Source of the DNA: Xanthobacteraceae bacterium
Lineage (GTDB): Bacteria > Pseudomonadota > Alphaproteobacteria > Rhizobiales > Xanthobacteraceae
Assembly (NCBI GenBank): GCA_041397365.1
Contig: JAWKWT010000012.1
Span: 25,165-89,164, forward strand
Direction of reading: 5' to 3'
Length of the DNA: 64,000 nt
The translations under genes and the position numbers were made by a program. How positions within the stretch are numbered: position 1 is the stretch's first letter; every line of letters starts with the position of its first letter. The notes beneath the pieces were generated by a model. It worked only from the letters and a program-made list of their open reading frames with translations. It searched no databases and was not told the DNA's origin. Below, piece after piece: positions 24,033 through 28,165 of this stretch.

Positions 24033-24437
24033 GGTTTCCCCCAATTGTTGTTATGACGTCCCTACGCGGGTGAGAGCGCAATGTCTCCCCGCCCGCGGCC
24101 CGGGATGTTCCATTTGTAAGCGATTTCGTTTGGCAGCGGGACGCAGGACTGTTGTGCGTATCCGGCACGGGTGCAGTCGTCGCTGGAACCGGCAAGAATC
24201 CGCAAAGCGGATCGATTGCCCTGATTTCGCCTGCACTTAATCCGCATTTAACCAAAAGCCGCCTTAATGACGCTCTGCGGTTCTGGCAGAGCTGATGCCT
24301 TGGGATGTGTGCTTGGCGACGTGCTTGGGACGTCGCTCCGAAGGGGACCTGCCAGATGGGATTGTGCGCCTGTGAGCCTTCGGCCGTGGCCGAAGGGACA
24401 AGCGGTTGGCGTTCGTCTGAGGTTGCGTTGGGTGAGT

Positions 24438-25511
24438 ATGCGTAAGCGTTCCGGAGCCGCTCCTGCGGCAGGCGATGGTCTGCGTCGGTCGCAGCCGCGC
24501 CGTCGACATCTCTCTGTCCAATCCGTCATCGGTGGCGTGGCGCTAGCGGCGATCGTCTGCGCTGCGGCGGCTGCGGTGTATCCGCATCTCGGCGCGGAGG
24601 CCGATGCCGCCACCGCGCCCGTGGCGCGCGCAAGTTTCGGCGATCGCTTCGGCGCGCTCGGCGGCAGCAGCGTCGTGGTGATGCACAGGCCGGCGCCTGA
24701 GACGTCGCCCGAAATTCCCGACGACGTCCGCCGCGGCTATGCGAAGCTGTTCGATGTGACCGCCTCGCTCGGGCCGGGCGGCGACACCTTCTCGACGGAG
24801 CCGCGCCCGTTCTATGGCCGTCGGCTGGCCAGCCTCGCGCCGGCCGGAAGCGAGGCCATCGCGCCGCCGGATATCGCCAAGCCTTCGGTGCAACTGGCCA
24901 ACACCGTGCCGCTGCCGCTGATGCGCCCGTCGAAACTCGCGCGGCTCGACAATGCGCCGGTCGCCATTCCGAGGACCAAGCCTGCGCCGGCCTCATCAGG
25001 CGCGGACCGGATTTTCGAAAAGCTGTTCGGCAAGCCCCTGAGCGGCCTCGGCACGCTGCTCGCCTACGCGCCGTCCGACGGCGGCATTCTGAGCGACGGG
25101 CAGAGCGCATCGCCGACCGGCCGCTACGACCGCACCACCGCCGTCTACGACATCACGGCGAAGAAGGTCTATCTGCCCGACGGCACCAGACTGGAGGCGC
25201 ATTCGGGCCTGGGTCCGAAGATGGACGATCCGCGCTTCGTGCATGTGAAGATGCATGGCGCGACGCCGCCGCACATCTACGACCTGAAAATGCGCGAGGC
25301 GCTGTTCCACGGCGTCGAGGCGATCCGCCTGCATCCGGTCGGCGGCGCGCAGGCGATCCACAACCGGAACGGACTGCTGGCGCATCCCTATCTGCTCGGC
25401 CCGCGCGGCGATTCCAATGGCTGCGTGTCGTTCAAGGACTACGAGGTGTTCCTGCGCGCCTTCAAGCGCGGCGACATCAAGCGTCTGGCCGTGGTCGAGC
25501 GCGTGGAGTAG
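24438..25511 (+). CDS. membrane-anchored DUF2778 (L,D-transpeptidase-fold, Tlde1-like) domain protein
   Basis: N-terminal TM segment VIGGVALAAIVCAAAAAVY, a Pro/Ala-rich linker, and a C-terminal YLPDGTRLEAHSGLG...IRLHPVGG...NGCVSFKDYEVFLRAF. The family name is from recollection. Confidence 0.65.
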   Translation: MRKRSGAAPAAGDGLRRSQPRRRHLSVQSVIGGVALAAIVCAAAAAVYPHLGAEADAATAPVARASFGDRFGALGGSSVVVMHRPAPETSPEIPDDVRRGYAKLFDVTASLGPGGDTFSTEPRPFYGRRLASLAPAGSEAIAPPDIAKPSVQLANTVPLPLMRPSKLARLDNAPVAIPRTKPAPASSGADRIFEKLFGKPLSGLGTLLAYAPSDGGILSDGQSASPTGRYDRTTAVYDITAKKVYLPDGTRLEAHSGLGPKMDDPRFVHVKMHGATPPHIYDLKMREALFHGVEAIRLHPVGGAQAIHNRNGLLAHPYLLGPRGDSNGCVSFKDYEVFLRAFKRGDIKRLAVVERVE

Positions 25512-25544: not shown

Positions 25545-25977
25545 CGAGGACGCTTGCCTCGTTCGCGCAAAGAAAACCCGCGCCATTTGCGGGCGTAGTT
25601 GATCGCCCCTGTTGTTTGCGATGGCGCACGCGCGCGAGGCTTGCCTCGTTCGCGCAAGAGAACCCGCGCCACTTGCGGGCGTAGTTGATCGCCCCCGTTG
25701 TTATGACGGCGCACGCGCGCGAGGCTTGCCTCGTTCGCGCAAGAGAACCCGCGCCACTTGCGGGCGCATTTGATCGCCCCTGTTGTTTGCGATGGCGCGC
25801 GCGCGCGAGGCTTGCCTCGTTCGCGCAAGAGAACCCGCGCCACTTGCGGGCATATTTGACCGCCCCTGTTGTTTGCGATGGCGCACGCGCGCGAGGCTTG
25901 CCTCGTTCGCGCAAAGAAAACCCGCGCCACTTACGGGCGTATTTGATCGCCCCTGTTGTTATGATGGCGCGGGGCGC
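25545..25977. repeat. five tandem copies of an ~86-bp GC-rich unit, each with two hairpins
   Basis: Units start at 25545, 25635, 25720, 25806 and 25892 (cgaggcttgcctcgttcgcgcaagagaacccgcgccacttgcgggcgtagttgatcgcccctgttgtttgcgatggcgcacgcgcg). Hairpins are gcgcgagg/cctcg(tt)cgcgc and cccgc-N7-gcggg. Confidence 0.9.
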
Positions 25978-26013: not shown

Positions 26014-26163
26014 ATGGAGCGCCGGGCGGCGCCGCATTTTGTCTCCGCGCAAGACGCTCCGCGACCGGCGCCGGTGACCGCGAGGCCACAACGCAGCCGC
26101 ATCGCGCCTTTCGGGCGCGGCTGCGTCCCGGCGAAGGACACATGACGCCGCCCGGCGCTCCAT
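26014..26163. repeat. 150-bp palindromic element bounded by perfect 18-bp inverted repeats
   Basis: atggagcgccgggcggcg (26014..26031) is the reverse complement of cgccgcccggcgctccat (26146..26163). Internal 10-bp stem acgcagccgc/gcggctgcgt and palindrome accggcgccggt. Confidence 0.7.
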
Positions 26164-26289: not shown

Positions 26290-26696
26290 AGTGGGATATG
26301 ATAGGAATATAGTCAGTAGGAATAAATGTCAAGAAGATTGGCCCAAAAACTGGCCTCTATGTCCGATCCCGGTGGGGAGTGTGGAAATATTCTGTCGGCA
26401 CATCTCTTGAATTTTTCGAAAATCATCTCCATCTATTGAAAGCCTTCAGCGCGAGGCTGAAGGGGAAGGTGTTACAACTGTCAAGGCCGACAGCCAAGGC
26501 TGTCAGCTTGACGATCTGAACACTTAGCGTGACAATCATGCTGAGAAAGTGGATCATTGTGATATATCCTTCGTGATTATAGCACACTGTGTTTATTGCG
26601 GACCGGCGATGACAAGCTGAGACTTGGTTGTGTTTCGGAGGGGACATTGGTGGACGCGTACCTGCGCCCCTCCGAACTTGCTACTGGCAAAGCTGA
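26290..26696 (+). ncRNA. candidate structured non-coding RNA / leader upstream of the RT (boundaries unknown)
   Basis: No sense ORF: stops occur in all + frames, with none open beyond ~140 nt. Hairpins at 26443..26463 (8 bp), 26480..26512 (13 bp) and 26636..26674 (8 bp). TAGGAATA is duplicated at 26302 and 26317. Confidence 0.35.
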
Positions 26697-27983
26697 ATGA
26701 CTTTCAAAAAGCGTGTCGTTCGGATTGGCGGTTGGTACGTCAAGAAAAATTTCCCACACTTTGATTTGACGCTTGGCTTTGATCAAGCTCTAGCGCTTGC
26801 ATCAAATCCAGCGCGAGTGTCGGAACATGCCTTCTGGCCGTTTATTGGTTATGTGGATCAAAAAAGAAAATTTTCGAAGCTGAAGAATCGCGCTCCCGAA
26901 GTGTCGAATAAAGAAAGACCGCTTCGATACTGCTCTCACCACGATGGGTACATTCACGCCTATTACGCGAAAAGCTTGTCAGAGCGCTATGAGGTGTTTG
27001 TTCGATCCTATGGCTTGGAGAATGCGGTCATCGGATATCGCAAGGGCCTGGGGACGAATGTTGACCTAGCTAAATCGGCCTTCGACGAAATCAAATTGCG
27101 AGAAACGAGTTGTGTGATCGCGCTCGATATAACGGATTTCTTTGGCTCTATCGACCACCATGTACTCAAGCAAAATCTTTGCGAACTTCTTGAGCAGTCG
27201 CAACTGCCTGTTGATTGGTACAAAATCTATAGGTCAATGACGAAGTTTTCTTGGGTCGAGTTGTCTGAACTCGCGGATCGGCTGGGGTTTGACCAGGATA
27301 AAGTGCCTCGCCCGATTTGTTCGGCTGATAGTTTTCGACAGAAAGTGCGGGGTGGTGATGGCTTGAATTCATCTCTGGTTCGCACAAACGCAAAAGACCA
27401 CGGAATACCGCAGGGTTCGCCGCTTTCGGCGGTTTTTTCAAATGTCTATATGATGCATTTCGATATTGCTTGCTCGAGGGAATTTCACTCGCGTGGTGAT
27501 TTTTATCGAAGATACTCTGATGACATTATTATCATATGCGATGTTGATCGTGCCGGCGAAGCCATCGATTTTGTGGAGCGTCAAATCGCAGATTTGGGTT
27601 CATCATTGAAACTCAACAACGCTAAGACGGAAGTTTCGGTTTTTGAACGCATCGGGCCGGATGTGTTCGTGTGCGATAGGCCAGTCACCTATCTCGGTCT
27701 GACTTACGACGGTAAACGCACACTCCTTCGTGCGCGCACATTATCTCGCTATTACAGACGGATGACTTACGCTGCGCGGCAGGCAATCAGATCGGCAAAG
27801 AAGTCTGAGTCAAAAAAACTTTTTCTGCGGAGTACATACCGAGATCTAACTCATCTGGGGGGCCGCAATTTTTATTCGTATGCGAAGCGTGCGAGTAAGA
27901 CTCTCAAGGATGTTTCCGCTGCTAAGCAACTAAGGCGGCATTTCCCGATCCTGCACCGCAAGTTAAAGACTGGCGGAAAATAG
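26697..27983 (+). CDS. stand-alone reverse transcriptase (UG/Abi / DRT-like class)
   Basis: RT motifs: RPLRYCSHHDGYIHAYYAKSL; ALDITDFFGSIDH (A); GIPQGSPLSAVFSNVYM (B); YRRYSDDIIIICD (C, YSDD at nt 27513..27524); LKLNNAKTEV; YLGLTYDG. Basic C-terminal ~90 aa. Low GC. Confidence 0.9.
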   Translation: MTFKKRVVRIGGWYVKKNFPHFDLTLGFDQALALASNPARVSEHAFWPFIGYVDQKRKFSKLKNRAPEVSNKERPLRYCSHHDGYIHAYYAKSLSERYEVFVRSYGLENAVIGYRKGLGTNVDLAKSAFDEIKLRETSCVIALDITDFFGSIDHHVLKQNLCELLEQSQLPVDWYKIYRSMTKFSWVELSELADRLGFDQDKVPRPICSADSFRQKVRGGDGLNSSLVRTNAKDHGIPQGSPLSAVFSNVYMMHFDIACSREFHSRGDFYRRYSDDIIIICDVDRAGEAIDFVERQIADLGSSLKLNNAKTEVSVFERIGPDVFVCDRPVTYLGLTYDGKRTLLRARTLSRYYRRMTYAARQAIRSAKKSESKKLFLRSTYRDLTHLGGRNFYSYAKRASKTLKDVSAAKQLRRHFPILHRKLKTGGK

Positions 27984-28105
27984 GGTTGAGGCGTGGCGTG
28001 GCCGCTAGACGTAGAACCTAATTTTGCTGTTCAAATGGATTTTCTCCTTCATCCCGATAGGTCAAGGGGGGTCGAGAGAAGCAGAGAACATCGCGTTCGG
28101 TGAAA

Positions 28106-28132
28106 TGAAAAAGGCCCGGATTGCTCCGGGCC
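28106..28132 (-). terminator. groEL rho-independent terminator
   Basis: ggcccgga-ttgc-tccgggcc with a T-run on the minus strand (gaaaaa on plus). Confidence 0.75.
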
Positions 28133-28165
28133 CTTTCCATTTTGCCTTCGCGATGAACCGCTGGA

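Follow-up and report, generated by a model that had tools for sequence, protein, structure and literature searches.

The 64,000-nucleotide (nt) stretch of DNA analysed here, hereafter the window (Xanthobacteraceae bacterium, GenBank assembly GCA_041397365.1, contig JAWKWT010000012.1, positions 25,165 to 89,164 of the forward strand; coordinates below count from its first letter), contains a reverse transcriptase (RT) gene preceded by a structured leader, and we propose that the two belong to a DRT2 (UG2) anti-phage system. Specifically, 26442-26684 would specify the DRT2 non-coding RNA (ncRNA), whose 120-nt template encodes in antisense one 40-codon unit of a never-ending neo gene, a gene existing only after the template has been copied into tandem DNA repeats. 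We put the probability of this reading at roughly 0.9. Several features computed here carry it: the family of the RT; the conservation and covariation of the RNA; a split promoter; a microhomology at the template ends; a unit length divisible by three; and a conserved open frame. An earlier sequence-only reading of positions 26290-26696 had suggested a DRT2-type template ncRNA with an antisense neo frame, and the suggestion is upheld by the assignment of the RT to Drt2, by alignment with published ncRNAs, by covariation and by conservation at 13 loci. The antisense frame also lies on the correct strand, a point that the earlier reading had left open: the neo mRNA and the ncRNA have opposite strandedness according to both studies of the Klebsiella pneumoniae system (Tang et al. 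2024, PMC11100668; Wilkinson et al. 2024, PMC12039810).

The 120-nt unit, its split promoter and their conservation

In the K. pneumoniae system (KpnDRT2), an ncRNA of about 280 nt is located upstream of the RT, and its nucleotides 29-148 form a 120-nt template that undergoes rolling-circle reverse transcription via an ACA repeated at both ends (PMC11100668, PMC12039810). The antisense strand carries TATAAT and TTGACA out of order at a spacing of 91 bp, and these come to lie 17 bp apart across the junction of successive copies; a ribosome-binding site (RBS) and an ATG follow the -10 element, and one frame is devoid of stops. Published DRT2 units are 111, 117, 120 and 129 nt long, each divisible by three (PMC11100668, PMC12039810). 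The elements of the window that bear on this geometry are:

26471..26590, minus strand: predicted 120-nt repeat unit, the neo proto-gene, with the template on the plus strand and the coding sense on the minus strand
26479..26484, minus strand: -35 hexamer TTGACA of the predicted junction promoter; plus-strand GTCAA is invariant in 13 loci
26576..26581, minus strand: -10 hexamer TATAAT of the predicted junction promoter; plus-strand ATTATA is conserved, with ATTGTA in 2 loci
26567..26572, minus strand: putative RBS GAAGGA, 9 nt upstream of the ATG; plus-strand CCTTC/CTCC is conserved
26555..26557, minus strand: predicted neo start codon ATG, first base 26557, lying in the stop-free frame
26469..26473, plus strand: GUGUU microhomology of the predicted donor site at the 5' template end, repeated exactly 120 nt downstream (26589-26593)

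On the minus strand of the linear genome, a perfect TATAAT and a perfect TTGACA are found out of order, 91 nt apart. Head-to-tail joining of the unit turns this arrangement into TTGACA, a 17-bp spacer and TATAAT, followed by GAAGGA, ATG and 40 stop-free codons; a 17-bp junction spacer, in turn, requires a unit of 120 nt. When 26471-26590 is circularised and its reverse complement read in three frames, these contain 0, 4 and 3 stops, respectively, and one 40-residue unit of the predicted Neo reads MIHFLSMIVTLSVQIVKLTALAVGLDSCNTVCYNHEGYIT. No linear minus-strand promoter was detected in the leader. At the predicted 120-nt offset the window shows a direct match of 5 nt, as against at most 2 nt at control offsets. 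The predicted concatemer junction reads ...TTGACAGTTGTAAC joined to ACAGTGTGCTATAAT...; the corresponding 29-mer is absent from the linear window, and the junction sequence TTGACAGTTGTAACACAGTGTGCTATAAT is absent from the chromosome. Two units bounded by ACA motifs were also considered and rejected: that from ACA 26474 to ACA 26584 is 110 nt long, not divisible by three, and leaves a 7-bp spacer, and that from ACA 26474 to ACA 26612 is 138 nt long, divisible by three and open, but leaves a 35-bp spacer and has no conservation. The open frame continues past the template, by 30 codons upstream and 15 downstream, and does so in homologues as well; this extension carries no independent information because it lies over the highly conserved scaffold.

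For comparison we collected 86 related loci (a scan of genome contigs with the single protein gave 2, and an alignment-based scan of metagenomes gave 80), from which the leaders of the window and its 12 closest RT relatives (RT identity 48-76%; two from near-identical contigs) were aligned. These 13 leaders align from about 26415 to about 26685, with a variable template block in between. Across them the template sequences are strongly diverged, with indels of 6 and 9 nt, and the unit, taken between one fixed pair of alignment columns, measures 120, 126 or 129 nt at all 13 loci, each length divisible by three. The same antisense register is stop-free in the concatemer at all 13 loci, and in 12 of them it is the sole open frame. 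Thus, the conservation of template length modulo three and of stop depletion in that frame, both of which the sequence-only reading had named as checks, is found in these loci. Likewise, TTGAC and TA[TC]AAT come to lie 17 bp apart solely across the junction (13/13), and a start codon stands behind a GAAGGA-like RBS at unit offset 33 or 36, this being ATG in 12 loci and GTG in one (L001). The core of the microhomology, GU followed by U or A (hereafter GU-W), is invariant, and its third base covaries between donor and acceptor: GUU is paired with GUU in the window and two others (L083 and L004), GUA with GUA in 8 of the 13 rows, and two rows are mismatched. In this 13-leader alignment, the first-site ACA is unconserved.

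We also applied a blind test whose only inputs were the distance from -35 to -10 and a spacer taken to be 17 bp; neither frame nor repeat entered into it. In this test the predicted length was divisible by three in 22 of 29 non-identical loci (p = 3.4e-6), and the mean microhomology at the predicted offset was 3.55 nt, as against 1.56 nt at control offsets. More distant loci of the same geometry have open-frame units of 102 to 162 nt. As a separate observation, L012, L014, L015/L045, L034 and L036 contain the -35/-10 pair and have units that are not divisible by three or contain stops (119, 117 with stops, 110-112, 121 and 122 nt); these may be decayed systems, assembly errors or cases of a different geometry.

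At the protein level, the predicted Neo units of the clade can be aligned with those already published, and the frame stands in the same relation to the promoter in the two groups: the -35 element is read as Leu-Asp and the -10 element as Tyr-Asn, with six codons between them. The remainder of the unit is hydrophobic and poorly conserved. Here, the hydrophobic core that the sequence-only reading had seen in a 74-residue antisense open reading frame (ORF; 26423..26647) is present, but would actually be the beginning of the Neo unit; the ORF itself exists, but its ATG at 26647 is unconserved and not the relevant start, which is likely the ATG at 26557. A tblastn search of plasmids for Klebsiella DRT2, intended for comparison, gave none.

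The reverse transcriptase and the RNA

The RT and the RNA features are as follows:

26697..27983, plus strand: predicted Drt2 reverse transcriptase, 428 residues, with the YSDD active-site motif intact
26407..26435, plus strand: putative promoter of the ncRNA and RT, TTGAAT (26407-26412), a 17-nt spacer and CATCTA (26430-26435), at a fixed distance to the 'GCC' of stem-loop 1 (SL1)
about 26442..26684, plus strand: predicted DRT2 ncRNA of about 243 nt, the conserved block of the 13 leaders, comprising SL1, the 120-nt template (a three-way junction when folded) and a 3' scaffold
26443..26463, plus strand: SL1 hairpin CCTTCAGC-GCGAG-GCTGAAGG, 8 bp (26443-26450 with 26456-26463)
26465..26469, plus strand: 5' arm GAAGG of the template-closing stem, pairing with CCUUC 26568-26572; with covariation and present in the minimum free energy (MFE) folds
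26480..26512, plus strand: template-internal hairpin of 6 + 7 bp, an arm of the three-way junction in the MFE fold of the window
26583..26593, plus strand: mini-hairpin CAC-ACU-GUG, with covariation, its right arm overlapping the acceptor GUGUU (26589-26593)
26604..26619, plus strand: short scaffold hairpin CGGC-GAUGACAA-GCUG in the MFE fold, possibly the 'buttress'
26636..26674, plus strand: CGGAGGGG...CCCCUCCG, the long hairpin of the scaffold, with a GGU/ACC stem inside it and a loop, GACGCG, that is invariant; possibly the 'tower'

The RT matches the PADLOC Drt2 model with E = 5.7e-132, scores 426 bits against the NCBIfam Drt2 equivalog NF041746 (curated cut-off 390), and matches the solved DRT2 structures 9c0i and 9lje with E ~1e-67 over residues 13-414, as a clear but not close relative of those chains. 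Residues Y273, D275 and D276 are invariant among 35 homologues, and the nearest relatives of the RT are alphaproteobacterial. Other RT families score far lower: the NCBIfam retron models give 58 bits (cut-off 235) and 27 bits (cut-off 450); the PADLOC retron and Drt9 models give E = 1.8e-13 and E = 1.1e-12, respectively, both far weaker than the Drt2 match; and the Drt3 and group II intron models stay far under their cut-offs. By these scores the ORF is a Drt2 reverse transcriptase, and a retron identity is rejected. NCBIfam annotation would already name this RT as Drt2, and an ncRNA and a neo gene would be expected beside it.

The extent of the RNA is set by its alignment with the ncRNAs of Table S1 of Tang et al., on which it is placed at about 26442-26684. 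In the part of that table used here (Vibrio, Stutzerimonas, Collimonas and Sphingomonas entries), the alignment runs end to end, with shared landmarks that include a GC start with SL1, GTCAA, ATTATAG, GCGG, GATG, a long hairpin in the 3' part and a closing TTGCTA. On this alignment, the leader is the ncRNA of a DRT2 anti-phage RT. No Rfam family was found over the leader (E <= 1 over 6 kb; E <= 10 over 321 nt). Immediately 5' of SL1, a TTGA-type -35 and a YAnAT-type -10 stand at a constant distance from the 'GCC' in 13/13 aligned leaders, and the Table S1 ncRNAs used here likewise begin at 'GC'; the putative promoter at 26407-26435 was too weak to pass a scan with the E. coli consensus. A transcription start site (TSS) is predicted at about G26442, in which case the template would start at about nt 29, as in KpnDRT2. 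Hence, where the sequence-only reading had taken the whole of 26290-26696 as a candidate template ncRNA, an ncRNA does appear to lie inside these limits, but the conserved RNA spans only about 26442 to about 26684, and 26290-26441 is, from the alignment, AT-rich flank and putative promoter. The same reading held that no sense-strand stretch was open beyond about 140 nt; this was mistaken, as one sense frame has a run of 68 codons (204 nt) free of stops, though it contains no ORF of at least 50 residues that has a start codon.

The leader is indeed densely structured, as had been claimed: its fold is more stable than those of shuffled sequences (z = -3.26), none of 100 shuffles being as stable. 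The three hairpins that had been picked out by eye, 26443-26463, 26480-26512 and 26636-26674, are all present, and the alignment of leaders reveals covariation in the outer two. In SL1, four of the eight pairs have compensatory changes across 12 loci. The long hairpin, whose arms (26636-26643 and 26667-26674) end 22 nt before the RT ATG at 26697, belongs to a helix with 97% of its cells paired and with compensatory changes in 9 of its 15 pairs. In the middle hairpin, 26480-26512, covariation was seen by eye only (GACAGCC/GGCTGTC versus GACGGCC/GGCCGTC), its alignment register varying between loci; most homologues again have, in their folds, a hairpin that starts with GUCAAG, though its sequence differs. 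The template-closing stem (26465-26469 with 26568-26572) has 95% of cells paired and GGAG/CUCC covariation in 3 loci, and its 3' arm consists of the same bases as the putative neo RBS. In the 3-bp mini-hairpin (26583-26585 with 26589-26591), the middle pair is GC in 7, UA in 6, AU in 2 and CG in 2 of 22 sequences (GC 5, UA 5 and AU 2 across 12 loci). The short scaffold hairpin (26604-26619) varies, by eye, between CGGC/GCCG and CGAC/GTCG, with columns shifted between loci and no formal score.

A covariance model built on the 3' scaffold (26583-26688) matched 21 loci, namely the window and 20 others, and every one of these matches lies directly upstream of an RT and on its strand. In an alignment of all 22 matches, among them one weak artefact from the minus strand, pairing holds in 96.5% of cells and compensatory changes occur in 13 of the 21 pairs, the controls with slid pairing giving 39-55% of cells paired. 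In the 12-locus alignment of SL1, the closing stem, the mini-hairpin and the long hairpin, 95.4% of cells pair and 9 pairs have compensatory changes. The aberrant match, at L084 1477-1577 on the minus strand (23.7 bits), overlaps the true plus-strand match and is probably artefactual, the long hairpin being nearly palindromic.

Weighing the alternatives

Several observations weigh against the proposal of a DRT2 ncRNA with an antisense neo unit. The 85-codon minus-strand stop-free frame (26680-26426) that the sequence-only reading had singled out is present, but is not unusual by itself: such a frame arises in 1540 of 5000 (31%) dinucleotide-preserving shuffles of the leader, and a stop-free circular frame arises in 35% of shuffled 120-nt units. 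With open frames so common in shuffles, significance must come from comparison across loci; here the homologous loci are related, such that counts over them are not independent events, and 7 of the 29 loci of the blind test do not fit. The ACA-1/ACA-2 motifs, for which strong conservation is described in Kpn-like systems, are not found as a pair here, and the exact jump point is placed by way of another microhomology. When the GU-W rule is applied to the Sphingomonas ursincola entry, the closest relative in the portion of Table S1 used here, it gives a unit of 119 nt with a stop. A 3' scaffold pseudoknot is part of the DRT2 structure determined by cryo-electron microscopy (Wilkinson et al., PMC12039810); the candidate for it here, UGCG 26597-26600 with CGCG 26655-26658, could form in 87% of cells, and its partners are near-invariant and devoid of compensatory changes.

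Part of this would be accommodated if the scaffold and template were genuinely those of a DRT2 system with a different product, be it through another jump point or unit, as non-coding repeat DNA or in a decayed system, the open frame being a by-product. Tang et al. report that Neo annotation is harder in divergent DRT2 clades and raise alternative mechanisms (PMC11100668), and the unconserved ACA motifs, the S. ursincola unit and the misfits of the blind test all point the same way. Nevertheless, we regard this as improbable: the split promoter, the 17-bp spacer, the RBS, the start codon, the length divisible by three and the single open frame co-occur in 13/13 loci despite their divergence, and the microhomology falls exactly at the offset predicted by the promoter geometry. 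An ordinary small gene, in the form of the 74-residue ORF (26647-26423) expressed from the chromosome as a hydrophobic toxin or membrane peptide, had been offered by the sequence-only reading as an alternative, and the ORF with its hydrophobic stretch does exist; however, the leader has no detected linear minus-strand promoter, that reading itself saw no Shine-Dalgarno sequence before 26647, the ATG there falls within the scaffold hairpin and is missing from homologues such as L084-L086, no Pfam or NCBIfam family matches, and the conserved RBS and ATG (26572-26555) lie inside the ORF. We consequently reject this alternative as very improbable. It is equally hard to credit that the leader is a structured 5' untranslated region regulating only the translation or stability of the RT, with the antisense frame due to chance. 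The frequency of the 85-codon frame in shuffles and the end of the last hairpin 22 nt before the RT start codon are compatible with this, but chance, which the sequence-only reading had also listed, leaves unexplained the out-of-order -35 and -10, the RBS and ATG, the indels in multiples of three and the same frame at 13 loci, as well as the homology to experimentally defined template ncRNAs; it too is rejected.

Setting, proposed mechanism and known systems

The DRT2 locus occupies a compositionally distinct insert. The GC content drops from 0.65-0.70 to about 0.48-0.50 at about 26280, the break that had already been recognised from the sequence, and stays low until about 28050, against a background of about 0.65. 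The ncRNA region is at the left end of this 1.8-kb insert, whose sole long ORF is that of the RT (26697-27983, plus strand, 428 residues). It is flanked on one side by a Tlde1-domain gene and GC-rich intergenic repeats, and on the other by a convergent groEL-groES operon; the wider neighbourhood consists of housekeeping genes, namely two TctC receptors, groES/groEL and an HlyD-MFS efflux pair, and is not a defence island. Neither flanking direct repeats nor an integrase marking a mobile element was found around the insert, and there is no tRNA or tmRNA near the locus. Between the RT stop codon and groEL lies one further feature:

28103..28142, strand not assigned: GC-rich hairpin with A- and T-runs on both sides

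This hairpin is likely a bidirectional terminator common to the RT and the convergent groEL; it gives weak, sub-threshold Rfam matches (BjrC68 and Thr leader).

Several further observations concern the left flank. Immediately 5' of the insert, 24267-25511 (plus strand) encodes a 414-residue protein with a C-terminal Tlde1 domain (E = 8e-28). Upstream of the insert, at 25705-25962, an intergenic GC-rich unit of 86 nt occurs three times in tandem, with the other copies 94% and 62% identical to copy one by an ungapped measure; this region has no Rfam match. A perfect 18-nt inverted repeat, ATGGAGCGCCGGGCGGCG / CGCCGCCCGGCGCTCCAT (26014-26031 and 26146-26163, arms 114 nt apart), lies just to the left of the GC break. 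The sequence-only reading had reported TAGGAATA as duplicated at 26302 and 26317, correctly so; the 15-mer GATAGGAATATAGTC occupies 26300-26314, where the insert has its left edge, with a partial second copy at 26317-26324. This 15-mer is identical in L083 (about 2625-2640; RT 76% identical) despite different flanking genes, and some similarity with that locus extends beyond it about 60 nt leftward into the GC-rich part. The 15-mer might belong to the transferred element, or it might be a regulatory site that lies upstream of the ncRNA promoter.

We advance the following mechanism for the action of this system. The RNA of 26442-26684 (plus strand) would be co-transcribed with the RT gene (26697-27983), and the RT would bind its 3' scaffold (hairpins 26604-26619 and 26636-26674) and copy the 120-nt template, from 26590 down to 26471, into DNA. 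On reaching the 5' GUGUU (26469-26473), the nascent DNA end AACAC could re-pair with the identical GUGUU at 26589-26593, an acceptor half-buried in the 3-bp mini-hairpin, and copying would restart, thereby yielding 120-nt head-to-tail repeats. Second-strand synthesis, which is phage-triggered in the studied systems, would then create junctions that place TTGACA and TATAAT 17 bp apart, as a promoter that would not be present in the chromosome. The resulting transcripts would be antisense to the ncRNA, each unit offering GAAGGA, 9 nt, an ATG and 40 sense codons without a stop, and their translation would give a repetitive, largely hydrophobic Neo protein that might arrest growth. Of these steps, rolling-circle copying, the phage trigger and the toxicity of Neo are those that we infer by homology to K. 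pneumoniae DRT2.

The DRT2 mechanism itself was already described in 2024, and no new mechanism is revealed here. What the locus illustrates is that a neo proto-gene, though missed by ORF callers, leaves recognisable signs in the raw sequence: out-of-order consensus promoter hexamers, a short direct repeat at the matching offset, a length divisible by three and a circularly open antisense frame; it also places a complete DRT2 system, as predicted, in an isolated 1.8-kb low-GC insert of a GC-rich genome. Further, it suggests a rule for template boundaries in divergent DRT2 clades that is broader than 'ACA...ACA'. To elaborate, we lean, by a little over even odds, towards the view that a mainly alphaproteobacterial DRT2 branch jumps templates by a G-U-(U/A) microhomology, with donor and acceptor covarying and the acceptor half-sequestered, and that this rule, joined with the split-promoter geometry, recovers clean neo genes (102-162 nt) in clades where the published annotation was challenging and at least one table entry is mis-registered.

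As far as the part of the table used here goes, the alphaproteobacterial DRT2 entries of Table S1, such as that of S. ursincola (WP_273301833.1), have the same ncRNA sub-type as the window: a GCC...GGC SL1, GGGGGAAG, GTTAC, TGTCAA and CATTATAGCGCACTGCGTTT, together with a GGACGCG loop and a CTTGCT 3' end. For the S. ursincola entry, the cDNA boundaries were set by aligning it with Kpn (Tang et al. Table S1, PMC11100668), and the Neo listed for it, MTGVYNEVSTQGRIAEIMSIVASVLSIAKFLMEL followed by a stop and QLTGV, holds that stop, yet is marked 'Neo identified = TRUE'. These boundaries appear mis-registered for this ncRNA sub-type, as judged from the sequence. In contrast to that listed Neo, the window and its 12 closest relatives give a clean predicted neo under the rule that combines promoter geometry with GU-W.

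The comparison with KpnDRT2 reveals a shared plan with several local departures. [quoted passage not shown] The template forms a multi-helix junction closed by a basal stem, the 3' scaffold has a long hairpin and ends in ...UUGCUA, and in Neo the -35 is translated as L-D, the -10 as Y-N. Moreover, the mini-hairpin whose right arm overlaps the acceptor parallels the SL2/ACA-2 arrangement of KpnDRT2 (Tang et al., PMC11100668). The departures are the following: the predicted donor and acceptor of the window are GUGUU (GU-U/A across the clade) rather than ACA and ACA, located 3 nt 5' of the expected place of ACA-1; the closing stem pairs with the RBS region and not with the -10 region; the scaffold loop is GACGCG instead of GCCGC; and the host is GC-rich (about 65% GC), with the nearest RT relatives coming from Alphaproteobacteria.

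Beyond DRT2, the parts of the reports on DRT10, telomerase and DRT9 used here describe a comparable logic, in which an RT copies a cis-encoded ncRNA template into repetitive DNA. The products are tandem repeats for DRT10 and telomerase and a homopolymer for DRT9; those parts speak of no promoter or reading frame being assembled by any of them, and in DRT10 the effector is a separate SLATT protein. Retrons likewise encode an ncRNA, msr-msd, beside the RT and copy it into DNA; however, their product is branched msDNA, whereas the locus in the window has no effector gene and its predicted product is a concatemer, from which, in the proposed reading, the neo gene itself would be assembled.

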